A stretch of DNA of 64,000 nucleotides from Squalus acanthias (taxonomy: Eukaryota), in NCBI GenBank assembly GCA_030390025.1, contig CM059432.1:69938001-70002000 (forward strand). The letters are read 5' to 3'. Positions within the stretch are counted from its first letter, which is position 1. Each line of letters opens with the position of its first letter. A program made the translations under genes and the position numbers. The notes under the pieces were generated by a model. The model saw only the letters and a list, made by a program, of their open reading frames with translations, was not told where the DNA came from and ran no database searches. Below are positions 8,599 through 63,220 of this stretch, piece after piece.

Positions 8599-11135
8599 GA
8601 CTCACAGAATCATACCTTTCAGCCAATATCCCAGACTCCTCCATCACCATCTCTGGGTATGTCCTGTCCCACCGGCAGGACAGACCCAGCAGGGGTGGCG
8701 GCACAGTGGTATACAGTCGGGAAGGAGTGGCCCTGGGAGTCCTCAACATTGACTCTGGACCCCATCAAGTCTCATGGCTTCCGGCCAAGCATGGGCAAGG
8801 AAACCTCCTGTTGATTATCACCTACCGCCCTCCCTCAGCTGATGAATCAGTACTCCTCCATGTTGAACACCACTTCGAAGAAGTAGTAAGGGCACAGGTG
8901 GGGGACTTCAATGTCAATCAGCAAGAGTGGCTCGGTAGCACCACTACTGGCCGAGTCCTGAAGGACATAGCTGCCAGTCTGGGTCTGCGACAGGTGGTGA
9001 AAGAACCATCATGAGGGAAAAAAACCTACTTGACCTCATCCTCACCAATCTACCTGTCGCAGATGCATCTGTCCATGATAGTATGAGCAGTGACCACCGC
9101 ACAGTCATTGTGGAGACTAAGTCCCATCTTCACATTGAGGACACCCTCCATCGTGTTGTGCGGCACTACCACCGTGCTAAATGGGATAGATTCAGAACAG
9201 ACCTAGCAGCTCAAAACTGGGCATCCATGAGGCGCTGTGGGGCAGCAGCAAAATTGTATTCCACCACAATCTGTAACCTCATGGCCCAGCATATCCCTCA
9301 CTCTACCATTACCATCAAGCCAGGGGACCAACCCTGGTTCAATAAGGAGTGTAGAAGAGCATGCCAGGAGCAGCACCAGGTGTACCTAAAAATGAGGTGC
9401 CAACCTGGGGAAGCTGCATCACAGGACTACATGCATGCTAAAAAGCGGAAGCAGCATGCTATAGACAGGGCTAAGCGATCCCACAGTCAACGGATCAGAT
9501 CCAAGCTCGGCAGTCCTGCCACATCCAGTCGTGAATGGTGGTGGACCATTAAACAACTGATGGGAGGAGGAGGCTCCATGAATATCCCCATCCTCAATGA
9601 TGGTGGAGCCCAGCACGTGAGTGCAAAAGACAAGGCTGAAGCGTTTGCAACCATCTTCACCCAGAAGTGCCAAGTGGATGATCCATATCGGCCTACTCTT
9701 GAGGTCCCCACCATCACAGAAGCCAGTCTTCAGCCAATTCGATTCACTCCACGTGATATCGAGAAACGGCTGAGCGCACTGGATACAGCAATGGCTATGG
9801 GCCCAGACAACATCCGTGCTATTGTGCTGAAGACTTGTACTCCAGAACTAGCCGTGCTTCTAGTCAAGCTGTTCCTTTACAGCTACAACACTGTCATCTT
9901 TCCGACAATGTGGAAATCTGCCCAGGTGTGTCCTGTCCACAGTAAGCAGGACAAATCCAATCTGGCCAATTACCGCCCCATCAGTCTACTCTCAATCATC
10001 AGCAAAGTGATGGAAGGTGCTATCAAGTGGCACTTACTCACTAAAACTGAAGTCAATGGGAATCGGGGGGAAAACCCTCCACTGGATGGAGTTATACCTG
10101 CACAAAGGAAGATGGTTGTGGTGGCTGAAGGTCAATCATCGCAGCAGGTGTTCCTCAGGGCAGTGTCCTAGGCCCAACTGCTTCATCAATGACCTTCCCT
10201 CCAACATAAGGTCAGAAATGGGGTTGTTCGCTGATGACTGCACAGTGTTCAGCGCCATTCACAACTCCTCAGATAATGAAGCAGTCCATGCCCACATGCA
10301 ACAAGACCTGGACAATGTTCAGGCTTGGGCTGATAAGTGGCAGGTAACATTCACGCCACAGAAGTGCCAGGCAATGACTATCTCCAACAAGCAAGAGTCT
10401 AATCACCGCCCCTTGACATTCAACGGCATTACCATTGCCGAATCCCCCACAATCAACAACCTGGGGGTTACCATTGACCAGTAACTTAACTGGACCAGCC
10501 ACATAAATACTGTGGCAACAAGAGCAGGTCAGAGGCTAGGTATTCTGCAGCGTGTGTCTCACCTCCTGACTCCCCAAAGCCTTTACACCATCTACAAGGC
10601 ACAAGTAAGGAGTGTGATGGAATACTCTCCACTTGCCTGGATGAGTGCAGCTACAACAACACTCAAGAAGCTCGACACCATCCAGGACAAAGCAGCCTGC
10701 TTGATTGGCACCCCATCCACCACCTTAAACATTCAGTCCCTCCACCACCGGCGTACCGTGGCTGCAGTGTGTACCATCTACAAGATGCGCTGCAGCAACT
10801 CGCCAAGGCTTCTTCGGCAGCACCTCCCAAACCTACGACCTCTTCCACCTAGAAGGACAAGGGCAGCAGGCGCATAGGAACACCACCACCTCCAAGTTCC
10901 CCTTCAAGTATAACACAATATTGACTTAGAAGTATATCTCTGATCCTTCATCGTCGCTGGGTCAAAATACTGGAACTCCCTCCCTAACAGCACTGTGGGA
11001 GTACCTTTACCACATGGACTGCAGCGGTTCAAGAAGGCGGCTCACCACCCCCTTCTGAAGGGCACTTCGGCATGGGCAATAATTGCTGGCCTTGCCAGCG
11101 AAGACCACATCCCATAAACGAATATTTTTTTTTAA
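8580..11135 (+). mobile_element. CR1-group non-LTR retrotransposon (APE endonuclease plus RT), frameshifted and internally deleted; distinct from the CR1 family above
   Basis: LTESYL, RGGG, YRPP, GDFN, LDLILTN, SDH (endonuclease); GPDNI, NYRPISLLS, FADD (RT); 3' tail ...gggcaataattgctggccttgccagcg... Confidence 0.88.
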
Positions 11136-17500: not shown

Positions 17501-17542
17501 CTTGTCAGCCCTCTTATAAAGGGGGTCAATTTCAAACATAGT

Positions 17543-18745
17543 CAACAACAACAACTTGCATTTATATAGCGTCTTTAACATAGTAAAATATCCCAAGGCG
17601 CTTCACAGGAGCGTTATCAGACAAAATTTGACACCTAGCTACATAAAGAAATATTAGGACAGGTGACCAAAAGCTTGGTTAAAGAAGTAAGTTTAAAGAT
17701 AACTTAAAGGAGGAGAGATGACAGAGAGCTTTAGGGAGGAAATTCCAGAGTTTAGGGTCTAGGCAGCTGAAGGCACGGCCACCAATAGTGGAGCGAAGAA
17801 AATCTGGGATACGCAAGAGGCCAAAATTGGAGCACAGAAATCTCGGAGGGTTGTCGGGCTGGAGGATGTTGCAGAGATAGGAAGGGGCAAAGCCATGAAT
17901 GGATTTGAAAACAAGGATGAGAATTATAAAATCGTGGCATAGCTGGACCGGGAGCAATGTAAATGAGCAACCCCAGGGGTTATGGCTGAGCAGGACTGGG
18001 GCAAATTAGGATACAGCCAGCAGAGTTTTGGATGAGCTCAAATTTACAGAGTGTGGTAGGTGGGAGGCTGGCCAGGACAGCATTCGAATAGTCAAGTCTA
18101 GAGGTAACAAAGGCATGGATGAGGGTTTCAGCAGCAGATGGGCTGAGGCAGGGGCGGAGATGGGCGATGTTACAGAGGTAGAAGTAGGCGGTGCTCGTGA
18201 TGAAGAGGATTTAAAAATTCTCATCCTTGTTTTCAAATCCCTCTTTGCCCTCGTCTCTCTCTTTCCCTGTAACCTTCTCTAGCCCTACAACCCTCTGAGA
18301 TCTCTGAGCTCCTTCAATTCTGGCCTCTCGCGCATCCCTGATTTTCTTTGCTCCACCATTGGCGGCTGTGCCTTCAGCTGCCTAGGCCCTAAATGCTGAA
18401 ATTCCCTCCCTAAACTTCTCTACCGCTCTACCTCTCTCTCCTCCTTTAAGAAGCTCCTTAAAATCTACTTCTTTGACCAAGCTTTTGGTCACCTATCCTA
18501 ATATCTCCTTATGTGGCTTAGTGTCAAATTTAATCGCTCTTGTGAAATGCCTTGGGACACTTTACTAGGCTAAAGGCATTATATAAATGCAAGTTGTTGT
18601 TGCTGATATGGGCTTAGAAGCTCAGCTTAAGGTCAACTAGGCTGCCGAGGTTGCGAACAGTCTGGTTCATCCTCAGACAGTGACCAGTGAGAGGGACAAA
18701 GTCGATGGCTAGGGAACAAGGTTTGTGGCAGGGGACCGAAGACAC
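17543..18745 (-). mobile_element. L2-type LINE 3' region (-) interrupted by an oppositely oriented L2 3' end (+, about 18208-18603)
   Basis: Tail TATATAAATGCAAGTTGTTGTTG at 17543 (-) and at about 18580 (+); L2 ORF2 C-terminal motifs (KILILVFKSLHG, GGRAFS). Confidence 0.82.
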
Positions 18746-21292: not shown

Positions 21293-21517
21293 GGACAAAA
21301 ATGAGAAGTCGCACAACACCAGGTTATAGTCCAACAGTTTTATTTAAAATTACGAGCTTTCGGAGCTGTTGCCCCTTCATCAGGTAAAGGTACCTTTACC
21401 TGACGAAGGGGCAACAGCTCCGAAAGCTCGTAATTTTAAATAAAACTGTTGGACTATAACCTGGTGTTGTGCGACTTCTCATTTTTGTCCACCCCAGTCC
21501 AACACCGGCATCTCCGC
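21293..21517. mobile_element. Penelope-like retroelement end (pLTR) inserted as an inverted, 5'-truncated pair within a CR1
   Basis: 198-bp palindrome plus a 27-bp unique tail, flanked by a direct repeat ATTGTGTCAGGAAGG (21280-94; 21518-32). Contains a hammerhead core. Inverted terminal structures are typical of Penelope elements. Confidence 0.8.
21396..21433 (+). ncRNA. Minimal type I hammerhead ribozyme motif (mirror copy on - strand at 21350-21387)
   Basis: TTAC-CTGACGA-A-GGGGC(AACA)GCTCC-GAA-AGCT-C-GTAA: stem I TTAC/GTAA, CUGANGA core, 5-bp stem II, GAAA, palindromic AGCT stem III, CUC triplet. Confidence 0.7.
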
Positions 21518-24500
21518 ATTGTGTCAGGAAGGGACAGAGCGTACAAACAAAAGAGTGCAATAACAAATAGGGTCCAGGTAAGAAAAAATGGTAATAAGAC
21601 AAATAGGGCCATAGTACAAAAAAATGTTAAGATGTCTAAAACTGTTAAAAAGACAAATCTAAAGGCACTGTATCTGAATGCACGAAGCATTCGTAATAAG
21701 GTAGACGAATTAACAGCGCAAATTGATGCAAACGGATACGTTATAATTGCAATTACGGAGACATGGCTGCAGGGTGACCAAGGCTGGGAGCTGAATATCT
21801 AAGGATATTCGATATTTCTGAAGGACAGGCAAAAAGGAAAAGGAGGTGGGGTGGCGTTATTAGTAAAGGATGAAATCAGAACAATAGTGAGAAACGATAT
21901 TGGCTCAGAAAATAAAGATGTAGAATCAGTCTGGGTGGAGCTAAGAAGCACCAAGGGGCAGAAAACATTGGTGGGAGTTGTCTATAGGCCTCCAAAGATT
22001 AGTGGTAATGTAGGGGATGGCATCAAACAGGAAATTAGAGATGCATATAACAAGGGTACTACAGTAATCATGGGTGACTTTAATCTACATATAGACTGGC
22101 CAAACCAAATTAGCCATAATACTGTGGAGGATGAATTGCTGGAGTGTGTACGAGATGGTTTTTTAGACCAGTACATTCAGGAGCCAACTAGGGAACATGT
22201 CATCCTAGATTGGGTACTGTGCAATGAGAAGGGGTTAATTAATAATCTTGTTGTGCAGGGTCCTTTAGGGAAGAGTGACCATAACATGATAGAATTCTTC
22301 ATCAAGATGGAAAGTGAAGAAGTCCAATCCGAAACTAGGGTCCTAAATCTAAACAAAGGAAATTACGATGGTATGAGGAGTGAGTTGGCTATGATAGATT
22401 GGGGAGCTTCATTAAAAGGCATGGCGGTGGATAGGCAATGGCTAACATTTAATGAACGAATGCATGAATTGCAACAGTTATACATTCCTTTCTGGTGCAA
22501 AAACACAAAAGGAAAAGCGGCCCAACCATGGCTACCAAAAGAAATTAAGGAGAGTATTAGATCCAAAGAGGAGTCATATAAAGTTGCCAGAAAAAGTAGC
22601 AAGCCTGAGGATTGGGAGCAGTCAAATAAATACTTTGGTTCTCTCTTCACGGAAGAGGACACAAATAACTTCCCAGAAATGCTAGGGAACCAAGGGTCTA
22701 GTGAGAAGGAGGAATTAAAGGAAATTAGTATTAGTAAAATAATAGTGCTGGAGAAATTAATGGGACTGAAAGCCGATAAATCCCCAGGGCCTGATAATCT
22801 GCATCCCAGAGTACTAAAAGAGGTAGCCATGGAAATAGTGGATGCATTGGTTGTCATCTTCCAAAATTCTATAGATTATGGAACAGTTCCTGCAGATTGA
22901 AGGGTGGCAAATGTAACCCCACTATTTAAAAAAGGAGGGAGAGAGAAAACAGGGAACTACAAACCGGTTAGCCTAACATCAGCAGTAGAGAAAATGCTAG
23001 AGTCTATTATAAAGGATGTGATAACAGGACACTTAGAAAATATCAATAGGATTAGACAAAGTCAACATGGATTTATGAAAGGGAAATCGTGTTTGACAAA
23101 CCCATTAGAGTTTTTTGAGGATGCAACTGGTGGAATAGATAAGGGAGAACCAGTGGATGTGGTGTATTTGGATTTTCAGAAGGCCTTTGATAAAGTCCCA
23201 CATAAGAGGTTAGTGTGCAAAATTAAAGCACATGGGATTGGGGGTAATATACTGGCATGGATTGAAAATTGGTTAACAGACAAGAAACAAAGAGTAGGAA
23301 TAAATGGGTCTTTTTCGAGGTGGCAGGCGGTGACTAGTGGGGTACCGCAGGAATCAGTGCTTGGGCCCCAGCTATTCACAATATATATCAATGATTTGGA
23401 TGAGGGAACCAAATGTAATATTTCCAAGTTTGCTGATGACACAAAACTAGGTGGGATTGTGAGTTGTGAGGAGGATGCAAAGAGGCTTCAAGGCGATTTA
23501 GACAAGTTGAGTGAGTGGGCAAATACATGGCAGATGCAGTATAACGTGGATAAATGTGAAGTTATCCACTTCGGTAGGAAAAACAGAAAGGCAGCATATT
23601 ATTTAAATGGTGATAGATTGGGAAATGTTGATGTACAAAGGGACCTGCGTGTCCTTGTACACCAGTTACTGAAAGCAAACATGCAGGTGCAGCAAGCAGT
23701 TTGGAAGGCAAATGGCATGTTGGCCTTCATTGCAAGAGGATTTGAGTACAGGAGCAAGGATGTCTTACTACAGTTATACAGGGCCTTGGTGAGACCACAC
23801 CTGGAGTACTGTGTGCAGTTTTGGTCTCCTTACCTAAGAAAGGATATACTTGCCAAAGAGGGAGTGCAGCGAAGGTTCACCAGACTGATTCCTGGGATGG
23901 CAGGACTGTCGTATGAGGAGAGATTAGGTCGACTAGGCCTGTATTCACTAGAGTTTAGAAGAATGAGAGGGGATCTCATTGAAAAGTATAAAATTCTGAC
24001 AGGGCTAGACAGACTGGATGCAGGGAGGATGTTTCCCCTGGCTGGGGGGTCTAGAACGAGGGGTCACAGTCTCAGGATACGGGGTAGGTCATTTAGGACT
24101 GAGATGAGGAGAAATTTCTTCACTCAGAGGGTGGTGAACCTGTGGAATTCTCTACCACAGAAGGCTGTGGAGGCCAAGCCACTGAATATATTTAAGAAAG
24201 AGATAGATAGATTTCTAGACACAAAAGGCATCAAGGGGTATTGGGGAGAGAGCGGGAATATGGTTTTGAGATAGAGGATCAGCCATGATCATATTGAATG
24301 GCGGAGCAGGCTCGAAGGGCCGAATGGCCTACTCCTGCTCCTATTTTTCTATGTTTCTATTCTCTCAGGTGGCCTAGCCAAAACTGGTGAATTTGACACA
24401 AACAGGAGACTCAAGTGAATGTCAGCTGAGCTTTGGTTTTGTTTCAAGGTCCAATTCTCCCACAGTAAGGTCAGATTTTATGTACCAGTCTAATTCAATC

Positions 24501-25741: not shown

Positions 25742-27600
25742 ATAAAAAAGAATTTTTACAATTATATTAGGAAAAAGAGGGTAGCCAGGAGCAATGTTGG
25801 CCCCTTAAAAACTGATATCGGTGATATTGTCAATGATAATAAGGAAATGGAAGACATGTTACATAATTACTTTGCGTCAGTATTTACAGTAGATGAAGAG
25901 GATAGCATGCCAGAAATCCTAAGGAAACTAATATTGAATCAGAGCTAGGGACTCAATAAAATTAATGTAAGTAAAATAATAGTAATGAAGAAAATAATGG
26001 CACTAAAGAGTGACAAATCCCCAGGACCAGATGGTTTCCATCCCAAGGTTTTAAAGGAAGTAGGTGAGCACATTGCAGATGCTCTAACTATAATCTTCCA
26101 AAGTTCTCTCAATTCAGGAACTGTTCCTTTAGATTGGAAAATTGTGCATGTCACTCTGCTATTTAAGAATGGCAAGAGAGGGAATCCAGGGAATTATAGA
26201 CCAGTTAGCCTAACATCTGTTGTCAGGAAATTACTAGAGCCCATAATTAAGAATAGGGTGACTGAACACCTCAAATATTTCAGTTGATCAGAGAGCGCCA
26301 GCATGGTTTTGTGAAAGGTAGGTCATGTGTGACAAACCTGATTGAATTTTTTGAGGTGGTGATTAAAGTAGTGGACAGGGGAATGTCTATGGATGTTATG
26401 TATATAGACTTCCAGAAGGCATTTGATAAAGTCTCACATAAGAGACTGTTAACTAAGGTAGAAGCCCATGGAATTGAAGGCAAACTATTGACCTGGTTAG
26501 GAAATTGGCTGAGCGGCAGGAGACAGAGAGTAGGGATAATGGGTAGGTGCTCAAATTGGTAGGTACTCAAATTGGTGGGATGTGACTAGTGGTATCTCGC
26601 AGGGATCTGTGTTGGGGCCTCAACTATTCACAGTATTTATTAACAACTTAGATGATGGCATAGAAAGCCATATATCCAAATTTGCCGACGTCACAAAGAT
26701 AGGTGGCAGTGTAGACAGTGTAGATGAAAGCATAAAATTACAAAGGGATATCGATAGATTAAGTGAATGGGCAAAACTGTGGCAAATAGATTTCAATGTA
26801 GACAAATGTGAGGTCATCCACTTTGGACCTGAAAAGGATAGACCAGGGTACTTTCTAAATGGTGAAAAGCTAAAAACAGTGGAGGTCCAAAGAGACTTGG
26901 GGGTCCAGGTACATAGATCATTAAAATGTCATGAACAGGTACAGAAAATAATCAAAAAGGCTAATGGAATGCTGGCCTTTATATCTAGAGGACTAGAATA
27001 CAAGGGGGTAGAAGTCATGCTGCAGCTGTACAAAACCCTGGTTAGACCACACCTGGAGTACTGTGAGCAGTTCTGGGCACCCCACCTTAGGAAGGATATA
27101 TTGGCCTTGGAGGGAGTGCAGTGTAGGTTTACCAGGATGACACCCGGACTCCAAGGGTTAAATTACGAGGAGAGATTACACAAATTAGGGTTGTATTCCC
27201 TAGAATTTAGAAGGTTAAGGGGTGATCTGATCGAAGTTTCAAGCTATTAAGGGAAACAGATAGGATGAATAGAGAGAAACTATTTCCGCTAGTTGGGGAT
27301 TCTAGGACTAGGGGGCATAGTCTAAAAATTAGAGCCAGACCTTTCAGGAGTGAAATTAGGAAACACCTCTACACACAAAGGGTGGTAGAAGTTTGGAACT
27401 CTCTTCCGCAAACACCAATTGATGCTAGATTAATTGTTAATTTTAAATCTGAGATTGATAGATTTTTGTTAACCAAAGGTATTAAAGGATATGGGTCAAA
27501 GGCTGGTATATGGAGTTCGGTCGCAGATCAGCCATGATCTAATTGAATGGCAGAACAGGCTCGAGGGGCTCAATGGCCTACTCCTGTTCCTATGTTCCTA
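25742..27600 (+). mobile_element. 5'-truncated CR1 LINE of another subfamily, nested in Harbinger copy 2
   Basis: RT motifs; 16-bp tandem duplication at 26542-26573 causing a frameshift; tail ttcctatgttccta. Confidence 0.92.
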
Positions 27601-30544: not shown

Positions 30545-30953
30545 TTGGCCTTGGCTCAGTAGTAGCACTCTCGCCTCGGAGTCAGAATGCTGTGAGTTCA
30601 TGTCCCAGTCCAGACGCTTGAGCACATAATCTAGGATGGCACTTCTGTGTAGTGGTGAGGTAGAGTTGCACAGTCGGAGGTGCCATACACACAAGAGATG
30701 ATGAGATGTTAAACTGGGGCCCCATCGGCCCTCTCAGGTGGATATAAAAGTACCATCGGCCAACTTTCATCCCTCAACCAACACCTAAAACATATGATCT
30801 GTCTGTTTGTGGGAGTGTGCTGTGTGCAAATTAACTGCTGCGTTTCCTATATTACCACAGTGACTACACTTCAAAAGTGCTTCATTCCCTCTCAACTCTT
30901 TGAGACGTCTTGAGGTTGTGAAAGGTGCTATATAAATCAAGTCTTTCTTTCTT
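30545..30953 (+). mobile_element. tRNA-derived SINE, DeuSINE/SacSINE1-like
   Basis: A-box TGGCTCAGTAG, degenerate B-box, body homologous to 59281-59745, and an L2-like tail. Confidence 0.8.
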
Positions 30954-30969
30954 GACACTCGCTCTGGGC

Positions 30970-32345
30970 TGTACTGAAGGACTCCTCCTGAGCTGTGCAG
31001 ACAGCTGAAAGGTTGTTTCAGGATGCCAATGGTTTGCTCAATCAGAACCTAGTGGCTGTACGGCTCTCATTATGTTGGCACTTGCCATGTGTGTCTGGAT
31101 TCCTAAGAGGAGTCATGAGCCAATTGGTGAAAGGATAGCCTTTGTCCCCCAACAGCGAGCCTGCCGCCCAATGGTTTGGGTGGAACAGAAGGGAGTATTG
31201 AGGACTGGCAAAATATGAAAGCCAGTCAGGAAACTGGGTACAGACCTGCAGGACTGCCTGCTTGTGGTCACAAACAAGTTAAACATTAAGCAAAGGGAAA
31301 CCATTACTGTTGAGAATCAGTCTTGGTTCGTGATGGGGAACACGCAGGGCTATGTCTGTGCAGTCTATGATGCCCTGCACCTGCAGGGATCCAGCAACGT
31401 GAGCAAATCCCAGTGCTTTTTCTTCCTGCTTGTCAACCTCAACGGGCAAGCTGATGAACTGTTGTTGCCTCGCAAACCGAGCATCAGTAACCTTCCAGAT
31501 CGCAATGCACAAAGTAAACTGGCTCATGTTGCTGATGTTCCGAGAAGCAGTTTGGAAGGAGCCATAGCCATAAAAGCTTAGAGCCACAATGACCTTCACT
31601 GGCACAGGCAGTGCAGTGCAAGCCCTGGTGTTGGGCTCCAATTCTAGCTTCAACAGATGGCACAGGTCTTACACACTGTGCGTCTGTGAGGTTCAGTAAT
31701 TACGTTTTGCTCCGGAATACCCACATGCTGTCAGGCCTCCTGCCCTCTTGCCTCTTTTGCTCTCTTCTCGCAGCCTGTGCAGGTCTTTGCTGCCTTTCTT
31801 GCTGCTGCTTCTTCTGATTTGGGACCCTCAAGGGTAAGTCCAGCAGCATTTCCATACTCAGCAACTGAGAACAAGCAAATCCTGTGAACCAGTTCCTGAC
31901 CTCCACAAACTCATTGTGCAAAAGTATCTCACAACCAAACATGCCAAATCAGCCAAAAATGTGAACCAAAAGCTCCCTATAAGCCTAAAACAACTAACCA
32001 GAGACTTGCCTTAATGGAGGTAAGGATCCCTTTAAATACCGCTTGTGAAAGCTGCTGGCTGACTGTTCCCGCCACGAGTTGCTGGGCGGACTAAGGAATT
32101 GACATTTCAGGAGCACACACAATAATTTCACAAAAGGGATCTGATTTAGATGCAGGACCTTTATTAATACCATTTAAATGATGTCTGCATTTGTTTCAGG
32201 AAGGCGTCAAGGACACCTATTGAGCGTTCGAGCCAATATGGCGTCAGACACCGTTCCGGCGCGGAACATTTGGCTGCAAAATTTCACTTCATGGCGCCCT
32301 TTTTGGATCCAGAAAATGAGCGAACCGCATACCCCACTAAATTTA
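30970..32345 (-). pseudogene. Decayed Harbinger transposase region
   Basis: VKVIVALSFYGYGSFQ...GFAHVAGSLQVQGIIDCTDIALR (ORF 31279-31653) with stops and frameshifts around it. Confidence 0.8.
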
Positions 32346-41099: not shown

Positions 41100-42950
41100 T
41101 GGAGAGTGCAAGATCTATAAAAACAGCTATAAACACTGCAGCCACTGCCAGTGGCTGTCAAGATTACCACTGCTTGGAAATTTTATGCTGTGGTGTGCCA
41201 TTTCAGGCTACCTCTGGAAACAGCAGTAACATTACACTTAATTGGCTATGCACAGATGCTCCAAGAAAGTCAGAGGTGCATTGTTTGCAAGCGCAAGGCA
41301 GTTCATTCACTTCCCCATGAACAATGGGCAGCAACATGATGGGACACTGCAGTTTTACAGAGCATAGAATTGCCCAAATTACCTGGGGTCATAGCTTGAA
41401 CCCACATTAACAGGAAAGGATTCCATTCGCTCAATGTCCAGCTTGTTTATAACCAGCAGCATCACATCATGCAAGTTTTCCTGGCAGTGCTGCCATACTG
41501 CCTTCATTTTAATTGTAACACTGTGCTACTACTCTTTCAACCAGAAAGGCAACTGGATCATGAAAGACCAAAGTAATCATCTAGAGTCATGGCTGAAAAC
41601 ACCTGTGCGCTTTCCTAGGACACTAACTGAGCGCCACTACAATAAGTTCCATTCCTCCACCAGATCCATAATAGAGCACACAATTAGAATTCTAAAAGTA
41701 TGCTTCAGGAGCCTGATTGGTCTGGAAGGCTCTGCAAATAGTAAGGTTCTAAAGATAGTGCTTTACAAAGAGTCCTCCTCATGGAGGTCTCAGAGGAGGA
41801 AAGCACCCAAAGGCAGCAGGGGATTCAGGCAGATGAGCACGAACAACATGAAGAAGGTACAGAGGATGTAAGACACATTCATGCCAATTTGTTACAGGAG
41901 ACTCTTTTGTGGTGACCACACCTGCCCACTACATGAATAGTCCTGTATCCATTTTCTGTTGCCTCTCAATATGAGCTTATTGGGATTCAGATGGCTTTCA
42001 TCTCATGGCAGCAAAGTCCTGAGATGTACCTGCTGCAGGCTGCACCTCTTGTGCTACTACAAGAGCAGCTTGGCCCTGCATTCTTTCATGTACAAGTATT
42101 TGTGGGTGCTGGCAGGACGGCACACGTGCTGCTGTCCTGGGAGAAAGCACCATAATGTGACTGCCTTCCTGCAATGCCACTAGTACGGGGACTGGCTCTG
42201 TATGGCCACTGATAGTGGGACTGTTAACAATTATATTGCTAAAGGCCTGTGTGATACTTTATATCCTAGACCCAATAGTTTGGAGTCCAGAAGAACCAGT
42301 CGTCTCAATCTTGCATCCCGGCATCTACAGCAGTGGTGTGAATATCCATGGAGCAAGCACAGACAGCTCTTGGGACTTCTATAGTGGGAAAGTCCACCGC
42401 AGAACTGCCTAAAGCTGCCATACGTTCTAGGTCTGCTGTGCTGTGAAGCCATCCATCATGGGGTGACAAATGCCGAGCATCACTTGCAGATTCTGAGAGA
42501 CCATCCTCAGTGCCTGCACATACTGGTGATGCGCTGCAAGCATCCTTCTTTTAAAAAAAAGGAATACATGAGATTTGGGTTCCAAGGCTCTTTGGCCGAC
42601 CTGTAAAGAACATCTGCTTCCTCAACTTCTACGCCCAGCTTCTCCTGCCCATTTGCGCATCAGCCTGTGCACTCTTTCTAGGTCTGCCTGCTGTCCCTTG
42701 TGAGCTGGATATATTTGGGCTGGCTACTTGGCATAAAGAGGTTGAATAATGGCGTGTGCAATGCAGTGTTGACAGGAAAAGAAGCAGGCGAGTCTGCCAG
42801 ATTTTCTTTGTCCGTCTTTGCTTCTTTTTGCTTCGTGAAATCCAGAGGAGGAGAATAGGAGAGGTTAGAATGGGTTGTAGAGGTGCATTTGCAACTTGAA
42901 GTAGAAGGAGTCACAGGAGGGTTTGTGATGTAGCTTGCTGACAAATAATG
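41100..42950. pseudogene. Old Harbinger remnant (transposase on +, probable Myb-gene remnant on -)
   Basis: WLKTPVRFPRTLTERHYNKFHSSTRSIIEHTIRILKVCFRSL matches the intact transposase segment WLMTPLRTP...RYNESHQATRNIVEHTIGVLKQRFRCL. Confidence 0.72.
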
Positions 42951-44195
42951 TCTGGTCCTAGAGAAAGGAAGGAAAGAAAGAAAGAACTTGGATTTATATA
43001 GCACCTTTCACAACCTCAGGACGTCCCAAACTCTTTACAGCCAATTAAGTACTTTTGAAGTATAGTCACTGTATGTATGGACACCCCATAAGTATGAATG
43101 AGAATACCCCCAAAAATACCTCTACACCAACCTCTGAAAGAAATCTGCACTTACCTGGTGCGAGGCCTCCTTCGAAAACTTGCGTTGTTTCGCTGCAGAG
43201 TTGTGCGCAGTGTAGTGGCCCTCGGATCCCACGGGTGCACCATGTGTGTAAGCATACCTGGGATCACGTGGGGCAGTGCGCCAATCAGGAAACAGAAATC
43301 TCTGATGCCTGACAGCAATCAAATTTTAAATTCACACATTACACCATTTATCTGACTCATGGGATAACAGTGGTAGTCCATAATAATCAAGTGAACATGG
43401 TCTATTTATCCCTGGTTAAGCTCAGCACCCACAATATGGAAATGCAGGGCTGGATTTTGCCAGCCGAGACGAGTTGGGGGCGGGACTGCTGCCTTCCGGG
43501 TTCTAGTCCCGCCCCCAGCGACGTCTGACGCACCCACGCTTTTTTCCCTCGATTGGCCTTGTTACCGGCCAATTAAGGGAAAGCCGGTGACAGATGACAT
43601 CAGCGTATGACGCTTCATCTGTTGAAAAATTTTTGACATATGAATTGTCAGTGTTTGACAGCTTTGAGAAGCTGTCAAACACTGAGGGGGAAAAATTCAG
43701 TTGGTTGCGCCTCCCGTTAGCGCCTTAAGAGGGCGCTAATGGGGCGCAAAGCAGCTAGCGCCTGGGCGCAGCGATGTTTGCGCCGCTCGCGAACTTAACT
43801 AGACATTTTGCGGCGGCGCTAAACTTTATTGCCGCGATCTCCTGCGCGCGCAGATTATGACGTCATACGAGAGTGCAACGCCCTTGTGGCGCCCTGGAGC
43901 AGAATTTCAGTGGCGCCCCCATCCTTACCGCCTGGCGCATCCAACGACCGGAAGAGTGGAACGCTAACAATCGCTGTGGGGCTGGGGGGGGCGCTATTTA
44001 AAGGGGGCCTCTTCCTGTCTTTCTCTGTGGTTGACATTTTTGCACCACTCGTTCTGAGAGAGAGAGAGAGATTCGGAGAGAGAGAAAGAGAGACTTCTGC
44101 ATTGAGTCAACGCTGTGTGAGGTAGTTTTGGCTACTCATCCTAACTTCGCTGGTACTTTGGTTTCTGGCCTTCATAACTTTGCTTGCTAAGAGAT

Positions 44196-45347
44196 ATGGG
44201 GGCTGCACTGATGGGGGGCGTCGTCCTGCGCCAGCTGAATCGGAGGAGACAGAGACGCAGAGAGAGAGTGTCAATGATGGCCAGACGGAGGAGGGCCAAC
44301 AGGCGTCTGTACAGGAGAGCTTACCCTCCCAGGGTATATCGTGAACAGCTCTCCTACATTCATATGTCTGATGAGCAGTGTCTGCGAAGGCTGCGCTTCA
44401 GCAAGGAGGTGGTCACTGAGCTCTGCCACCTGCTGCAGCCAGATCTGCAGCCTCAACTGAGGTCCAGGACGTCTCTGTCGGTGGCAGTGAAGATTACAGT
44501 GGCTCTGAACTTTTATGCTACTGGCTCATTTCAATCTGCAGTTGGGGACATCGCCAATATCTCCCAGTTCGCGGTGCATTGCTGCATCAGGAAGGTCACA
44601 AATGCCCTCTTTAAAAGGAGACGAGAGTTCATCTCTTTCCCCATGACCCCAGACAAGCAGCAAGAACGCGCTCTGGGCTTTGCGAGGATAGCGGGCTTCC
44701 CCATGGTGCAGGGCGCCATTGACTGCATGCATGTGGCTTTGCGTGCTCCGCATGAGAATGCCGAGGATTTCCGCAACAGAAAGGGGTTCCATTCCTTGAA
44801 TGTTCAGTTGGTCTGTGACCACAGACAGCTGATACTCGCTGTCAATGCCCACTATCCTGGCAGCTGCCACGATGCTTTCATCCTGCGCCAGACTACTGTG
44901 GCAGAACTTTTTGAGGCACCGCATCAGCCAGTTGGTTGGCTTCTCGGGGACAAGGGGTATCCACTGAGCACCTGGCTGATGACACCGCTCCGTACGCCCA
45001 ACACCCCTGCTGAGCTGCGGTACAATGAGAGCCATCAAGCTACCAGGAACATCGTGGAGCACACAATCGGCGTGCTCAAGCAACGGTTCCGCTGTCTCGA
45101 CCATTCTGGAGGAGCCCTGCAGTACTCGCCTGAGCGAGTTTCCAACATCGTAGTTGTGTGCTGCATGCTGCATAACATGGCAATCCTCAGGACCCAGCCA
45201 ATGCCACCAGGCCTTGGAGCACCACCAGAGGAGGAGGAGGAAGAGGAGGAGGAGGATGATCAGCAGCAGCACCAAGGCGTGAGGGCGGCCCACAATGGTG
45301 AAACTGCAAGGGCCGTCCGTCAGCGGCTGATAGCAAGCCGCTTCTAG
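44196..45347 (+). CDS. Harbinger DDE transposase (HARBI1-like family), 383 aa from the ATG at 44196
   Basis: Uninterrupted ORF with RLRFSK, LNFYATGSFQ, GAIDCMHV (D), NRKGFHSLNVQLVCD, PGSCHDAFIL, LLGDKGY (D), RNIVEHTIGVLKQRFRCL (E) and CCMLHN. Confidence 0.95.
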   Translation: MGAALMGGVVLRQLNRRRQRRRERVSMMARRRRANRRLYRRAYPPRVYREQLSYIHMSDEQCLRRLRFSKEVVTELCHLLQPDLQPQLRSRTSLSVAVKITVALNFYATGSFQSAVGDIANISQFAVHCCIRKVTNALFKRRREFISFPMTPDKQQERALGFARIAGFPMVQGAIDCMHVALRAPHENAEDFRNRKGFHSLNVQLVCDHRQLILAVNAHYPGSCHDAFILRQTTVAELFEAPHQPVGWLLGDKGYPLSTWLMTPLRTPNTPAELRYNESHQATRNIVEHTIGVLKQRFRCLDHSGGALQYSPERVSNIVVVCCMLHNMAILRTQPMPPGLGAPPEEEEEEEEEDDQQQHQGVRAAHNGETARAVRQRLIASRF

Positions 45348-45658
45348 GCCCCTGCTGTGGAAATGGCTTCTGCCGTTGAGAACAGCATGAATGAACCCAA
45401 CACGCAACCCCTAAGCCGGCCAAGGCACCAATGATTCCAAACACCAAACATGTATATTTTGAGTACCAAATCTTATTTATTTTACAAACTCTGTGTGTGT
45501 CATTTCTTCATGACAAACTCATACAAATAAACACAAAAAAACAGTCATTACCATAACTGGTTCTCACAACCTGGAGATCATGTGCAAAACACTCAACAAA
45601 AGTTTGACCACGAACCTCGGCCTTTAATAAAAAAATGACCAGCATTTTGTCACACCTC

Positions 45659-47502
45659 CTACATCGAGGGTGAACTCCTTCCCGTGCGCCCTTCCCCCCT
45701 TCTTACCCTACTGCTCCTCCGCAATGGGACCTCAGTGGCTGCAGCAAGGCTGGTGGAAGGCTGCTGACTGTCAGGCCCTGACAATGCAGATGCCCTTGAG
45801 GGACGGCCTCGACCAGTTCTGGGCCTGGAGGGCCCGGCTGCAGACTGCACCAACTCTGCATGGGCGGCAGCAGTCTGTCCTACAGGCGGTGGCAACTGCA
45901 GTGGAGAAGTGACAGTGGTGGCAGCAGGAATGCTGTCATCTTGAGCGAGGACAGCAACTCCCTGCTCGACCGGCACACTGGCACTCCCACGGGGCAGCAC
46001 CTCAGCATCCGGAGTAATCTGCTGGAGCACAGATTGCTGGCCTGCTGCGGCACGGTGAGAGCCCCGGGGAAATGTGAACGAACCAGCGAGGATGGCAGCA
46101 GACAGTGCTCGCGTGACCTCAATCTGACTCTGCATGAGAGCAGTCTGAGATTGAATTGCAGCACTGAGCTTCAGTGTCGCATCCGCCTGCGCTGCAGCGA
46201 AGTGCTCCACACTCCTTGCCAGTGCTTCAATGCATTCGGGCACCCTACCCACTGCAGCCATGAGCTCAGTGTGCATGCCCACCGCCTGGGTGTTCATTTC
46301 CGCGATCAGCCGCTCCTCCTCTGCGTCCAGTGCAGCAGGACTCGCTGGCATACTCTCCCTCCGGGGAGAAGGCCCCCGAGCTTCCCTACCCCCATCGCGT
46401 TGCTGCAGCCCGCTGGGTCCTGGAGCTTCACCCTCATCAGACCCTTCCCCCCTGCTCCCCTCCAGGGAAGGCGTGTTCCCAGTGTCGGCATGGGCTTCCT
46501 CGGGAGAGGGTGGCACTGATGCTCCGGCTTCCTCTTCCTCCTCGGCTGCAGCTTCACTCCCACTGGCAGCTTCAGGGCCCGTCTCCTCAGCTGGTGAATC
46601 ACCATCTGAAAGCAGGGAGGTACAAGAGTGGCTTTAGCGTGAGGACAGGGTGGCAGTAAGGGAGGAATAAGTGCAGCGAGTTAGTAAGTTGGATTGAAAG
46701 TGTCAAAGGCTGGTGTTGTGAGGGACAAGTGGAAGGACAGAGGACAAAAAGGTGATGACCTTACCATTGCTGTCCAGAACGGGGTCGGCGTCTCCAGTGG
46801 CGACGGGACCTATCACCCGGCTTGCCACAATCCTGTGGACGCGCTCCTCAAGATCGCTGAGGGGTTGCAGCTGAGGCCGCCCTCCACCCGTCCGTTGCTG
46901 CTGTCTCCTATTATGCGCCAGCTTGGCCTGCAGGAAAAAGGACGGCGTCTGAGTAAATATACAGCCATGGTCTTGCCTGATGTGCCTCCCATAGGTGAAT
47001 AGCCCTTACTGTATACAGCCATGGTCTTGCCTGATGTGCCTCCCATAGGTGAATAGTCCTTACTGTATACAGCCATGGTCTTGCCTGATGTGTCTCCCAT
47101 AGGTGAATGGCCCTTACTGTATGCAAAGTATGGAATGTGTGTGTGTGCTTCATGAAAGGGCCATAGGTGTTGGATGAGTGTTGTTAATTGTGGTTTAAAG
47201 ACCCTCTGGCCATAGAGTGAGGTTGAGATGGAGGGATGGAGAGGTATTGCAAAAAAGCCACTCACCCTGACGACCCGAGTGAGGTCGTTGAACTTTTTCC
47301 GGCATTGGACATGGGTCCTGGGCACCATGCTCCTGGAGGAGACGCGCTGAGCCACCTCCCTCCACACTCTTCTGTAGTCGCGCGGCAAAGGCCTCCTGCC
47401 ACTCTCTGGGTACAGTATTGGTCTTCGGCGCTCCACCGCGCCAACCAGAGCATCCAAGGCCCGCTCGGTGAAGCGCTCAGCTCGTTCTCTCACCCTCTCC
47501 AT
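45659..47502 (-). CDS. Harbinger Myb/SANT-like DNA-binding protein, 3 exons (47502-47266, 46927-46765, 46605-45659), about 448 aa
   Basis: Exon 1 RFTERALDALV...VWREVAQRVS...RTHVQCRKKFNDL ends at gtgagt. Exon 2 AKLAHNRRQQQRTGGG...LSDLEERV lies between ctgcag and gtaag. Exon 3 follows ctttcag and joins the 285-aa ORF in frame. No stops. Confidence 0.88.
46958..47122. repeat. 54-bp tandem repeat, about 3 copies, in intron 1 of the Myb-like gene
   Basis: The unit TATACAGCCATGGTCTTGCCTGATGTGCCTCCCATAGGTGAATAGCCCTTACTG starts at 46958, 47012 and 47066, with only a few substitutions. Confidence 0.95.
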
Positions 47503-48559
47503 CCTTGGCTGGAAAAAGGATTCACAGGTCTCTCCAGGCCGAGATTCAAGGCTGCAATGAGCAGGATGTGGCTGGGGAGCAAGATCGCCCCCCCCCTTTA
47601 AGAACTGGCCGGCGCCAGTGTGTCTGTGTTCCCTCGCTAACTGGCAGCACCTGCGCTGCGCTCGCGCTCTGAGTTAGCGCCTCACTCCTCGGCCTTTGCG
47701 CCTTAAGACAGGTGTGCAGCGCCTGATTTAGCGCTCCAATCACCTCCCGGGGCGTTATAAGTGAAGTTTCCAGTCAGTGGCGATAATTAGCGCCAGGCGC
47801 TAATTTTTGTGCCCGCACGATATTTGCGCCCCAAACGGGGCGCGACTGAATTTTTCCCCCTGACAATCTCTGTTCTAAGGTGAGCCCTTGCACAAAGGCT
47901 CACCAAAACCTCTCTCCTCATCAGAAAGCAGATGGCTGCTGAATCTGAGAATGCAGCAGCCATTCTGTCATCTCTGCCGTTGAGATGAGGCACCTCCGGA
48001 TCCTCAAAGGTTGAAGCCTGCAGAAAGAAGCAAAGGTAAGGAAACATTTTCCAACACTTTACACTCACCTCTCATACTCATCTGTCCACACTTGCACCCA
48101 TCACTCACCTCTACAGCTGACATATCGACTCCTCTCACCCCCGCAGACCCACTGCTCGCCTCACTGACCCTGGCAAGGTTCACAGCCATCGGGAAGCCCG
48201 CACTTGCAGGCGTAAAATGGGGAAAAGCCTCAAAACTGCCTGTTAACTACCTGTTAACAGGCAGTTAATTGGCTCTAATCCCCTTCCCGCCTCAAGGAGA
48301 TGGGTCCCTGCACGACTCGGGGACCCACCTCCCAGGAAGATGGCACGGAGGCGGGTTGGGCGGGGTTGGTACCCGCTCCCAGTTTCTGCCATTTTCCCAG
48401 CAGTCCCGCCTCCAAACCCCCCTCCTCAGGGCTGGTAAAATCCAGCCTGCAGTGATTTTTTTTTCACTCTTATGTGGTTTATCGTAAGTTTGGGATTACA
48501 TGCATTAAATCCCGAACTTACGATCTGTCAAGTTCTGACTGTATTGCCCTCATTGCTGG

Positions 48560-49680
48560 CACAGAGTTGGGCTAATTGCCAACCAACTGCCCAGCAATTA
48601 CACAGGAAAATGTTACGGTTGGTGCAAACAGGCGCAGGAGCCTGTTTGCACAGCATAAGGGGATGGATGATATAGATGAAGCATCAAAGCAGCAACTTGA
48701 GTGCTCAAAAAGGAACCTGTGTTTATTTTACCACATGCTTTGCTGAAATGGCATGTTTTACAGCACATCAGGGCAATGAGGTTCAGTAAATCTGAGAGTA
48801 CGCCATCATACCGACCGCAAAGCCTGCCCCTTTAACTCTATGCCCTATCCTCACTCTGATCTTTCTGTCTTTGGCCTCATATAATGTCCCAATCAGGCCA
48901 ATGCAAACTTAAAGAACAGTAGCCTGAATTCTCTCCTCCCTGCCACTCATTCCATTAGCATAGGTTAACATTTCCATTATGTACAGTTGGTATGTGAAGT
49001 ACCCTGGTAGTTGCCATGATGCATTTATAATGAAAAAAATCAACTGTACCAGCTTTTTGCCAAATTAAAGACAGGTCAGTGGATGGATTCTGTGAGATAA
49101 GGGTTACCCTCTCCAATCCTGGCTGATGATCCCAGTCAGGATTCCTTTCAGTAAAACTGAGGAGAAATACAAGGAGGCTCATGTGGCCACCAGAGGCATA
49201 ACAGAGCACATCTCTGGAATACTGAAAGCATGATTCTACTGTCTGGACAGATCTGGTGGTTCTCTGCAGCATGCTCCAACACAAGTATTGAGAATAGCCA
49301 TTGACTGCTTCACAATTATGCACTGAAGAGAGGAATCAGTTGAAGGAAGAGGAGAAACCATTGTGTTAAAGGGTGGGGGATGTAGAGAGTGATACTGATG
49401 ATGTAGAAAAGTGAGGAAGATCCACAGGCTTATCTTGTGCCTGGCCCAAGAAGTGTCAGAAGAGTTCTGATAAGGAACACATTCTCCTCAAAGTAAAAAA
49501 AAATCTGCATCTGAATAAAGATTCCAATATCTGCGATTGGCAGCACCTCCCCACAACATTGCAAACTGGGCAGTCCAATTTCTTGGAATTTCCCCGAAAC
49601 ACACCACTTTATTCAAGGGAATAAAATGAACGCATATCGCAAATTCAGGTACATACTCGCCACGATTTTTCACCCATTGA
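48560..49680 (+). pseudogene. Old Harbinger transposase remnant
   Basis: About 49085-49330 reads DKGYPLQSWLMIPVRIP...YKEAHVATRGITEH, with frameshifts. Confidence 0.65.
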
Positions 49681-50119: not shown

Positions 50120-53100
50120 AAATCATAGAATCGTAGGATGATACAGCACAGAAGGAAGCCATTCAGCCCATCTTGCCTGTGCCGGCATTTAGGTAGAGTT
50201 ATGCAATTAATCCCACTCCCCTGCTCGTTTCCAATAGCTCTGTAATTTTTTTTTCCTTCAAGTATTTATCCAATTCTCTTTTGAATGTTACTATTGAATC
50301 TGCTTCCACCACCCTTTCAGGCAGTGCAGTACAATTCACAACAACTCGCTCTGGAAAAAAAATGTGTTCTTGTGTCGCCTCTGGTTCTTTTGCCAATCAC
50401 TTCCTTCTGTGTCCTCTGGTTACCGACTCTTCTGCCACTGGAAACAGTTTTTCCTTATTTACTCTTCATGATATTGAACACCTCTATCAAATCTCCTCTT
50501 AACTTTCTCTGCTCTAAGGAGAACAATCAGTCTCTCCACGTAACTGAAGTCTGTCATCCCTGATACCATTCTAGTAAATCTCTTCTGCATCCTCACCAAA
50601 GCCTTGACATCCTTCCTAAAGTGTGGTGCCTAGAATTGAACACAATACTCCAGCTGAGGCCTAACCAGTGTTTTATAAAGATTTAGCATAACTTCCTTGC
50701 TTTTGTACTCTGTTTCTTTATTAATAAAGCCAAACATCCCATATGCTTTTTAATAGCCTTCTCAACTTGGCCTGCCACATTCAAAGCTTTGTGTACATAC
50801 ACCCCCAGATCTCTCTGTTCCTGCACCCCCTTTAAAATTGGACAACTTAGTTCATATTGCCTCTCCTCATTCTTCCTATCCTATCAAAATGTATCACTTC
50901 ACACTTCTCTGCGTTAAATTTCATCTGCCATGTGTCTGCCCATTTTAGCAGTCTGTCTACGTCCTCCTGAAGTCTGTTACTATCCTCTTCAGTGTTTACT
51001 CATTTCTGAGTTTCGTATCATCTGCAAACTTTGAAATTATGCCTTGTGTACCCAAGTCCAGGTCATTAATATATATCAAAAAGAGCAGTGGTCCTAATAC
51101 CACCCCCTGGGGAACAACTGTATACTTCCCTCCATTCTGAAAAACAACCATTCACCACTACTCTCTGCTTTCTGTCCCTTAGCCAATTTTTTTCTCTAAA
51201 AGTCTTCCCACCACCGATGTTAGGCTAACTGACCTGTAGATTTATGCCTCTCCCTGATTTTAAACAGGGGTGCAACATTTGCAATCCTCCAGTCCTCTGG
51301 CACCACCCCTATATCTAAGGAGGTTTGGAAGATTGTGGCCAAAGCGTCCGCAATTTCCACCCTTACTTCCCTCAGTACCCTAGGATACATCCCATCCAGA
51401 CCAGGTGACTTTTCTATTTTGAGGACTGCCAAACTTTTAAGTACCTTCTCTTTATCTATTTTTATTCTATCCAATATCGCTACTGCCTCCTCCTTTACTG
51501 ATACATTGGCAACATCCTCTTCTCTATTGGAGACAGATGCAAAGTACTCATTTAATATCTCAGCCTTGCCCTCTGCCTCCACAAGAAGATTTCCTTTTTG
51601 GTGCCTAATTGGCCCCACCCTTCCTTTGACTAACCTTTTACTATTTATGTGTTTATAAAAGACTTTTGGGTTCCATTTTATTAGCCGCTAATTTATTCTC
51701 ATACTCTCTCTTTGCCCCTCTTATTCCATTTTTTAGATCTTCTCTGTACTTTCTGTATTCAGCTTGGTTCTCTACTATACTATGAACCTGACAATAGTCA
51801 TAAGACACCATTTTCTGTCTCATTTAAACCTCAATATTTTTAGTCAGCCAGAGAGCTCTAGCTTTGGCTACCCTTCCATTCCCCCTCATAGGAACATGTC
51901 TACTCTATACCTAAACCATCTCCTCTTTGAAGTCTTCTCATTGTGTTTTGCCTCCCAATTTTTGATTCCAAACACCTGGGCCAGATCCCTTTTCAACTCA
52001 CTGAAGTTAGCCCTCCTCCAGTTAAGTAGTTTTATGCTTGATTGTACTTTGTCCTTTTCCATAACTATTATAAACCTGATGATATTATGATCGCTGTTCC
52101 CCAAATGCTCCCCCACTTAAACATGCTCCACCTTTCCCACTTCATTCCCCAGAATTAGATCCAGCACTGCTCCTTCCTCATTGGACTGGAAACATACTGA
52201 TCAAGAAAGTTCTATTGTACACATTTCAGGAATTCCTCCCCCCCTTTTGCCCTTTACACTGTTACTATCCCAGTCTATATTAGGATAACTGAAGTCCCCC
52301 ATTATCACTACTCTGTAGTTCGTGCATCTTTCTGTACTTTGCCTGTGAATCTCCTCCGCTATCTCCTTCCCACTATTTGGTGGCCTACAGTATACATCCA
52401 GTAGCGTAATAGTTCCTCTATTGTTCCTTAATTGATAATGGGGGATTTCAGTTATCCTAATATAGACTAGGAAAGTAACAGTGTAAAGGGCAAAGAGGGG
52501 GAGGAATTCCTCAAATGTGTACAAGAGCACTTTCTTGATCAGTTTGTTTTCAGCCCAATGAGGAAAGAAGCAGTGCTGGATCTAGTTCTGGGGAATGAAG
52601 TGGGGCAAGTGGAGCATATTTCAGTGGAAGAGCATTTGGGGAACAACGATCATAATATCATCAGGTTTAGAATAGTTATGGAAAAGGACAAGGTACAATC
52701 AAGTGTAAAAATACTAACCAAATGTTAACCAAATAGACTCTGTCTTTGGCCCTTCAACGACATCATCTCTCTCCAGTGCTATAATAGTTTATTTTATCAG
52801 TACTTCTGCCCCCCCCTCCTTTTTTTCCTTCCTTATCTTTCCTGAATACCATGTAGCCAGGAATATTAAGTTCCCAATCCTCCCCTCTTTGAGGCCGGTC
52901 TCTGGTATTACCACTATATTATAGTCCCATGTGGTGACCTGTGCCTGCAACTCACCAACCTTATTTACCATGCTCCTTGCATTTACGTACATGCACTCCA
53001 TCTTAGACTGCTTCGCATTTTCTCCCTGTCTGATTCCTCCTATTTCTGAACTGTTCTTTACTCCTCTCCCAGTCCTCTGTGCACCTTTTTTCTCCTCTCT

Positions 53101-61309: not shown

Positions 61310-63220
61310 ACATAGAAACATAGAAGATAGGAGCAGGAGTAGGCCATTCGGCCCCTCGAGCCTGCTCCGTCATTTAATGAGATCATGGCTGATCATCCAA
61401 ATTCAGTACCCTGTCCCTGCTTTCTCCCCATATCCCTTGATCCCTTTAGCCTTAAGAAATATATCTAACTCCTTCTTGAATATATTTAATGAATTGGCCT
61501 CAACTGTCTTTTGTGGTAGAGAATTCCACAGGTTCACCACTCTCTGGGTGAAGAAATTCCTCCTCATCTCTGTCCTAAATGGCTTACCCCTTCTCTTTAG
61601 ACTGTGACCCCTGGTTCTGGACTTCCCCACCATCGGGAACATCCTTCCTGCATCTAGTCTGTCTAGTCCTGTTAGAATTTTATAAGTTTCAATGAGATCC
61701 CCTCTCATTCTTCTAAACTCCAGCGAATATAAGCCCAATTGACCCAATCTCTCCTCAGACGTTATTCCTGCCATCCCAGGTATCAGTCTGGTGAATCTTC
61801 GCTGCACTCCCTCCATGGCAAGAACATCCTTCCTCAGATAAGGCGACCAAAACTGTACACAATACTCAAGGTGTGGTCTCACCAAGGCCCTGTACAACTG
61901 CAGCAAGACACCCTTGCTCCTGTACTCGAATCCTATCGCTATGAAGGCCAACATACCATTTGCCTTCTTAACCGCCTGCTGCACCTGCATGCTTACCTTC
62001 AGCGACTGGTGCACAAGGACACCCAGGTCTCGTTGCACTTCCCCTTCTCCCAATCTATTGCCGTTCAGATAATAATCTGCCTTCCTGTTTTTGCCACCAA
62101 AGTGGATAACCTCACATTTATCCACATTATACTGCATCTGCCATGCATCTGCCCAATCACCCAACCTGTCCAAATCATACTGGAGTTTCTCGGCATCCTC
62201 TTCACAGCACACACACCCACCCAGCTTTGTGTCGTCTGCAAACTTGGAGATATTACATCTAGTTCCCTCGTCTAGATCATTAATATATATTGTGAATAGC
62301 TGGAGTCCTAGCACCGATCCCTGCGGTACCCCACTAGTCACTGCCTGCCACTCGGAAAAAGACCCGTTTATTCCAACTCTTTGCTTCCTGTCTGCCAACC
62401 AGTTCTCTATCCAAGTCAGTACCTTACCCCCAATCCCATGTGCTTTAACTTTACACGCTAATCTCTTATGCGGAACCTTATCGAAAGCCTTCTATAAGTC
62501 CAAATATACCACATCCACTGGTTCTCCCTTATCTATTCTACCAGTTACATCCTCAAAAAATTCCAGTAGATTAGTCAAGCACGATTTACCTTTTGTAAAT
62601 CCATGTTGACTTTGTCCGATCCTGTCACTGTTTTCCAAGTGCTCTGCTATTACATCTTTTATAATGGACTCTAACATTTTCCCTACTACCGATGTCAGGC
62701 TTACCGGTCTATAATACCCCGTTTTCTCTCTACCACCTTTTTTAAATAGTGGGGTTACATTAGTTACCCTCCAATCCATGGGAACTGTGCCAGAGTCTAT
62801 AGAATTTTGGAAGATGACCAGCAATGCATCTACTATTTCTAGGGCCACTTCCTTAAGTACCCTAGGATGTAGATTATCAGGCCCTGGGGATTTATCGGCC
62901 TACTATCCCATCAATTTCCCTAACACCATTTCCCTACAAATACTGATTTCATTCAGTTCCTCCCTCTCATTAGACCCTATGTTCCCCGACATCTCTGGAA
63001 GGTTATTTTTGTCCTCCTTTGTGAAGACAGAACCAATGTATGTATTTAATTGGTCAGCCATTTCTTTGTTCTCCATTATAAATTCCCCTGATTCTGACTG
63101 CAAGGGACCTACGCTTGACTTCACCAATCTCTTTCTCTTCACATATCTATAGTAGCTTTTACAATCAGTTTTTATGTTCCCTGAAAACTTACTCTCATAC
63201 TCTATTTTCCCCCTCTTAAT
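61310..63220 (-). mobile_element. 5'-truncated CR1, same young subfamily as 833-2930
   Basis: Near-identical RT and 3' UTR, including the shared AFIAIG variant. Confidence 0.95.

Follow-up and report, generated by a model that had tools for sequence, protein, structure and literature searches.

A 64,000-nucleotide stretch of the genome of the shark Squalus acanthias (GenBank assembly GCA_030390025.1, contig CM059432.1, positions 69,938,001 to 70,002,000 of the forward strand; the whole stretch is called the window below, position 1 being its first letter) contains a complete 4175 bp Harbinger element at 43686..47860. Is this element a source that still jumps, as a sequence-only reading of the DNA had proposed, or a well-preserved resident of the genome? 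The structural part of that proposal stands: the element is a two-gene PIF/Harbinger transposon with autonomous structure in a vertebrate, with a DDE transposase gene, a Myb/SANT-like gene, perfect terminal inverted repeats (TIRs) and an exact target-site duplication (TSD). Four features had gone unmentioned in that reading: the nesting of the element in another repeat, a subterminal 8-mer, a tandem triplication in intron 1 and a Met two positions past the first catalytic Asp. It is a full-length copy, with both frames open, of an abundant PIF/Harbinger family, and in our judgement it is probably a well-preserved resident rather than a jumping source.

The limits of the element are given by its TIRs and by empty insertion sites. 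The left TIR (43686..43701, + strand) starts with GGGGG, and its 16 bp are identical, when inverted, to those of the right TIR (47845..47860, − strand); past base 16 the likeness ends. The TSD is TGA, with the left copy at 43683..43685 and the right copy at 47861..47863 (both + strand), and empty sites retain one copy, in agreement with the duplication read from the sequence. Short TIRs beginning with G or A and a 3-bp TSD mark PIF/Harbinger elements, and both are found here, the TSD being backed by the empty sites; the TSD is not the CWG of the NuwaI group. The window has 268 perfect 16-mer inverted pairs with a spacing under 10 kb, and of these this pair alone is flanked by a 3-bp direct repeat. 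Likewise, a scan of the window for TIRs with TSDs, with 41 candidate pairs, leaves only the Harbinger element and the element that hosts it. This host is an older, non-autonomous Harbinger-like element with imperfect TIRs (43447..48448; 824 bp without the insert), which has a 3-bp duplication of its own, GCA, at 43444-43446 and 48449-48451. The arrangement is thus an insertion of one Harbinger-type element into another. The CpG observed/expected ratio is 0.97 and 0.83 at the termini of the inserted element, against 0.33 and 0.39 in the flanks, so the CpG richness claimed for the termini is real. The left arm of the older host is also CpG-rich (0.86), however, and CpG at the termini is therefore a weak sign of youth.

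Empty sites were found in sequencing runs. The run search listed 22 runs, 20 of which contain part of the stretch, with ten coded organism labels; contigs were compared from four of the 22, named X1, X16, X6 and X11. In all four, a joint from 43681 to 47860 skips 4178 bases, which is the element plus 3. It is carried by 13 contigs of X1, 2 of X16, 2 of X6 and 12 of X11, flagged 'between: not known'. The depth of the joint (1001 in X1) far exceeds that of a single copy, which identifies these empty sites as paralogues belonging to the older host element, itself a high-copy repeat. They bear out the limits of the element and its TSD and do not bear on polymorphism at the locus itself. The proposed check for empty sites thus gives paralogous empty host sites in every run compared. 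Among the 32 pieces listed, no contig bridges the junctions between the element and its flanks, so that in these pieces the occupied site is absent from every run.

The transposase gene (44196..45347, + strand) is intronless, and its unbroken frame encodes 383 amino acids. The protein matches the Pfam domain DDE_Tnp_4 (PF13359) with an E-value of 2.8e-41 and 141 bits, compared with a cut-off of 24.8. In an alignment with 120 homologues, Asp176, Asp252 and Glu288 occupy the conserved catalytic columns, which upholds the earlier description of an unbroken transposase with three catalytic motifs. Residue 178, two positions past the first catalytic Asp, is Met, and 82 of 115 homologues have Thr at this position; the change from Thr178 to Met is of the kind that CpG deamination would produce. 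The AlphaFold model of the transposase is confident, with a mean predicted local distance difference test (pLDDT) score of 89.3. A Foldseek search with this model gave nothing at an E-value of 0.001 or better; the three highest-ranking folds belong to DDE transposases or integrases, and each of these matches is weak, the best at 5.9e-3. A sequence search against solved structures gave low-complexity matches only. The best-scoring relatives of the transposase come nearly all from sharks and rays, with a top identity of 67%. A tree was built from 33 transposases, hand-chosen to cover a spread of species and for their length; in it, the protein of the window falls among sawshark copies, in a clade that is starred (98/94). 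Together with the best-scoring relatives, this makes an elasmobranch host likely. As a separate observation, the clades P0018/P0020/P0061, P0011/P0014 and P0007/P0016/P0025/P0017/P0013 unite sharks and rays that are only distantly related, with branches that are very short (0.05-0.14), a pattern that suggests domesticated Harbinger transposase genes or horizontal transfer in elasmobranchs.

The Myb/SANT-like gene lies on the − strand and converges on the transposase gene, and the gap between the two stops (45348..45658) holds AATAAA-type signals on both strands. Its three exons are at 47266..47502 (exon 1, with the Myb/SANT domain), 46765..46927 (exon 2) and 45659..46605 (exon 3, up to a TAG stop), and they join as one frame of 448 amino acids. 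Both introns, at 46928..47265 (intron 1) and 46606..46764 (intron 2, 159 bp), are of the GT..AG type, and a shift of one base at the junctions abolishes the canonical signals. Within intron 1, a 54-bp unit is repeated 3.1 times with 96% matches (46958..47122). Exon 1 matches the domain Myb_DNA-bind_5 (PF13873) with an E-value of 7.3e-10 and 39 bits, compared with a cut-off of 21.7. The spliced protein aligns with the homologue P0123 at 37% identity over 365 columns (E-value of 2e-71), spanning both splice junctions, and at the intron 1 junction P0123 and P0010 both align without a gap. Each search for Myb homologues gave a single match. The domain and the homology support the three-exon gene that had been proposed, and for intron 1 the support comes from this homology.

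For the two junctions themselves, 46765/46605 and 47266/46927, which the sequence-only reading wished to see in RNA, the outcome is divided. The joint of intron 2, from 46605 to 46765, occurs in three contigs of X16 (depth 336, with 25 letters on the shorter side) and in none of X1, X6 or X11. X16 is taken as RNA by guess, no run that contains part of the stretch being recorded as RNA, and the confinement of the spliced joint to X16 fits this guess. The joint of intron 1 is absent among the 15 of 186 joints listed, and an X16 contig at 47160-47406, with 16 differences, crosses the intron 1 donor unspliced; this contig may derive from pre-mRNA, DNA or another copy. The letters of X16 differ from the window at 20 of the 21 listed sites in the element, so that its transcripts come mostly from other copies of the family. 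One X16 contig is identical to the window along 159 bases (45477-45635). Regarding contact between the two proteins, a complex prediction with residues 30-340 of the transposase and exon-3 residues 85-205 of the Myb-like protein, run without alignments, returned a score of 0.00 and gave no answer.

Both ends of the element share a subterminal motif. The 8-mer GGCGCTAA was initially chosen by eye and afterwards verified with an unbiased count, in which none of 500 shuffles contained any 8-mer six times. The 64-kb window holds six exact copies, three close to either end of the element, and nine further sites with one mismatch, all of them at most 304 bases from an end. The left cluster (43717..43997) comprises three exact and five one-mismatch copies, and the right cluster (47674..47830) three exact and four one-mismatch copies, all putative sites of the Myb-like protein. 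The Myb protein of the zebrafish element Harbinger3_DR is reported to recognize a subterminal 9-bp motif (PMC9710019), and by this analogy GGCGCTAA is the likely candidate for the binding site of the Myb-like protein.

The element belongs to a large family. Its depth reaches 10^5-10^6 in X1 and X11, compared with about 18 for contigs of the single-copy flank. The ratio of the median per-site depth to the depth of single-copy flank contigs is about 9,800 in X1 and about 3,900 in X11, a value that is not a copy number and gives an order of magnitude only ('thousands'). Two organisms or more thus have the family at a depth of, roughly, thousands of copies, and it is present in a third. Most aligned contigs are 90-99% like the window. 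An X11 contig of the flank differs at 10 of 148 bases although the depth of the family is much the same there, which means that diverged organisms have the family in common. Deletion joints, for example from 44022 to 47726 in X1, together with deeper coverage of the terminal bins, point to internally deleted, non-autonomous derivatives in the family. [quoted passage not shown] A search with the left terminus against metagenome contigs gave no matches.

Other Harbinger-like remains are scattered in the window. Decayed Harbinger Myb-like genes related to that of the element, with 49% identity in exon 1, are seen at 4212-5943 (− strand) and 6913-7762; they lie in an inverted arrangement at about 3905-8354, and a transposase relic has its end at about 4167-4373. 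Broken Harbinger transposase relics occur at 30953-31668, 41112-41715 and 49000-49308, their matched pieces being 28-71% identical to the transposase of the element. The segment 57584-58858 is a candidate Harbinger-like non-autonomous element that has similar GGG-starting ends and lacks a matching 3-bp duplication.

Does this copy, or its immediate subfamily, transpose today, with native proteins that a two-plasmid assay would find functional? Much of the anatomy would suit an active element: perfect TIRs and TSD, open frames, an intact catalytic triad, intact subterminal motifs and CpG-rich ends, to which the splicing of Myb intron 2 in the probable RNA run and a close subfamily that dominates organism B can be added. 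However, in so large a family some copies should keep their frames open by chance, and open frames alone say little; a rough calculation with assumed rates of stops and indels leaves both frames open in 7-59% of copies at 1-0.2% divergence. An identical sister copy was unseen in the runs, where the largest share of sampled window words in any run is 0.66, and the word shares are compatible with a divergence of about 1%. The difference listing comprises the best-supported 40 of 424 rows, 21 of them inside the element. At five of these 21 sites, another letter accounts for at least 99.8% of the depth in X1, X16 and X6, which sets this copy apart from nearly all aligned copies of two organisms; its distinguishing letters are at 44271, 44540, 45375, 46933 and 47197. 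The mutation rate of the epaulette shark is reported as 7e-10 per base per generation (PMC10587355), and at this rate five changes in 4175 bp correspond to about 1.7 million generations, if they are private to this copy. The Thr-to-Met change at residue 178, of the type left by CpG decay, and the X16 transcripts, which stem mostly from other copies, also speak against present activity. We treat the description of the element as recently mobile and naturally active as a hypothesis.

Several observations weigh against reading this copy as a resident in slow decay. At two of the five sites, 30-35% of the X11 depth falls outside the listed alternative, and only position 45375 differs fully from the window in all four runs. 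The runs are perhaps of other species, and rare variants are lost from contigs; the letters that differ could therefore belong to a young subfamily specific to one species and need not reflect decay of this copy. In X6 the listed alternative is the minority at 14 of the 21 sites, which implies that organism B has a close subfamily in abundance. Met at residue 178 recurs in 17 of the 115 homologues, six of them with an intact DDE triad, and the TIRs and the TSD are flawless. With these points included, we consider it unlikely that the copy or its immediate subfamily transposes today. A young subfamily that is still transposing, with unmodified proteins that are functional and a Myb protein that reads GGCGCTAA, is a possibility to which we likewise give a low probability, and a well-preserved resident remains the preferred description of the element.

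The insertion site raises a narrower question, whether the family homes specifically to the palindrome of the host element, which would make the nested insertion a targeted one. The insertion splits a host palindrome with 21-bp arms (43644..47867; one arm at 43644-43664, the other at 43669-43685 plus 47864-47867), and deletion of the element with one TGA rebuilds it. In addition, 8 of the 15 positions in the target consensus of Harbinger3_DR (PMC3016246) are matched by the site, and among them are all six bases to the left of the TSD. These features would suit homing. This is a single site, however, and the flanks of other copies are not among the 24 of 3398 loose-end rows listed; moreover, a host of such high copy number is expected to be struck through an ordinary short target preference. 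We therefore regard specific homing as very improbable. The site reads C/TGA/C, and it lacks the 3′ G of the NuwaII form C/TNA/G; the comparison sets a single site against a group trait that describes a family-level preference. Two further observations concern the host element. At 48000-48045 (+ strand), the translated stretch VEACRKKQR is followed by a donor-like GTAAG and resembles the end of Myb exon 1; the non-autonomous host perhaps retains it as a remnant. There is also a second palindrome, at 48208-48292, whose arms are 40 bases long.

It is most improbable that the host has co-domesticated the two genes as a pair like HARBI1/NAIF1, a cellular role having kept their frames open through selection: both frames are open and Harbinger genes are reported to have been co-domesticated repeatedly (PMC9710019), but domesticated genes of this type are single-copy and orthologous and have lost their ends, whereas here perfect TIRs and a TSD are retained on an element that sits inside another repeat, the family is thousands of copies deep, and the closest annotated shark or ray protein is only 67% identical, which leaves the transposase without a close orthologue.

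How would such an element move? The DDE transposase would excise it and insert it elsewhere, with a loose preference for target sites about 15 bp long. By analogy with Harbinger3_DR (PMC2836001, PMC9710019), the Myb-like protein would bind the subterminal motifs, probably GGCGCTAA, and would also bind the transposase and carry it into the nucleus. Movement would be by cut and paste with both proteins required, and the same two proteins would probably mobilize deleted derivatives in trans. For Harbinger3_DR and for Ping/Pong, both proteins are reported to be needed, excision is usually precise and the target preference is extended (PMC2836001). In the present element, the observed parts of this scheme are the ends, the TSD, two open genes, the catalytic triad and, for the family, the splicing of intron 2 in X16, the run guessed to be RNA.

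The window also contains repeats of other kinds. A near-perfect hairpin without a loop, with 99-base arms that are 99% complementary, is located at 21293-21490, and long fold-backs with extended inverted arms, 78-93% complementary, are located at 17542-18606 and 52025-52715. Long frames at 833-2443, 8939-10171, 21803-24274, 26540-27250 and 61403-62491 resemble the reverse transcriptase and endonuclease of retrotransposons without long terminal repeats, and we take them to be CR1/L2-like.

We compared the element with described systems. Harbinger3_DR likewise has a DDE transposase and a Myb-like gene, a 3-bp TSD and a repeated subterminal motif (PMC3016246, PMC2836001, PMC9710019, PMC13668399), and the six bases left of the TSD in its target consensus (PMC3016246) are those of the shark element. 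Compared by description, the two differ in the TSD, which is CWG in Harbinger3_DR and TGA here, in the target, with the match at 8 of 15 positions, and in the motif, a candidate 8-mer here. Moreover, Harbinger3_DR is a reconstruction, and the shark element is a native copy. Harbinger-Snek of sea kraits is reported with 269 intact copies in L. colubrina and one in L. laticaudata, with deleted derivatives and, in a sea krait other than the one with 269 copies, RNA reads over both frames; current activity is suspected (PMC8437027). By description, Harbinger-Snek and the shark element are both high-copy two-gene Harbingers of vertebrates with intact copies; Harbinger-Snek is said to have arrived by horizontal transfer, whereas the shark element nests in an elasmobranch-wide transposase clade. 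The NuwaII group of the PHIS superfamily, as described, shares with the shark element TIRs that start with GG in a range of 13-46 bp (16 bp here), two genes with a Myb/SANT partner, and a TNA-type TSD that has C as its 5′ neighbour (PMC4482050). The base 3′ of the TSD is G in NuwaII and C at the single site of the shark element. Among annotated proteins, P0002 and P0003 of Pristiophorus japonicus, named 'putative nuclease HARBI1', are 67% and 60% identical to the transposase. P0002, P0003 and P0123 are automatic gene models and not described transposon families, and none exceeds 67% identity.

Harbingers are already listed in shark repeat annotations (PMC8455134, PMC12498223), and a Harbinger-family element of Caenorhabditis inopinata is described as active in the laboratory (PMC13668399). 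For the elephant shark, no Harbingers are reported, and other cartilaginous fish are recommended for checking (PMC9179366). Our literature search, which left repeat databases and most subscription papers outside its scope, found no described autonomous Harbinger family of elasmobranchs; with most subscription papers again outside, it found no native active animal Harbinger tested in cells. The vertebrate Harbinger that the available accounts call active in cells is Harbinger3_DR, a reconstruction. Since sea kraits are known to have intact, transcribed Harbingers, the shark element would hardly surprise a specialist unless activity appears.

A family that is thousands of copies deep bears on the gap in cartilaginous fish named in PMC9179366. 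The present copy is native, its two frames and its ends are intact and it has a candidate binding motif; it could enter an assay directly, and as an assay candidate it is reasonable but unproven. If native activity were true, the element would be a native, not reconstructed, two-component transposon of a vertebrate with an extended target preference, and it would mean ongoing DNA transposition in a slowly mutating lineage that is described as dominated by long interspersed nuclear elements.

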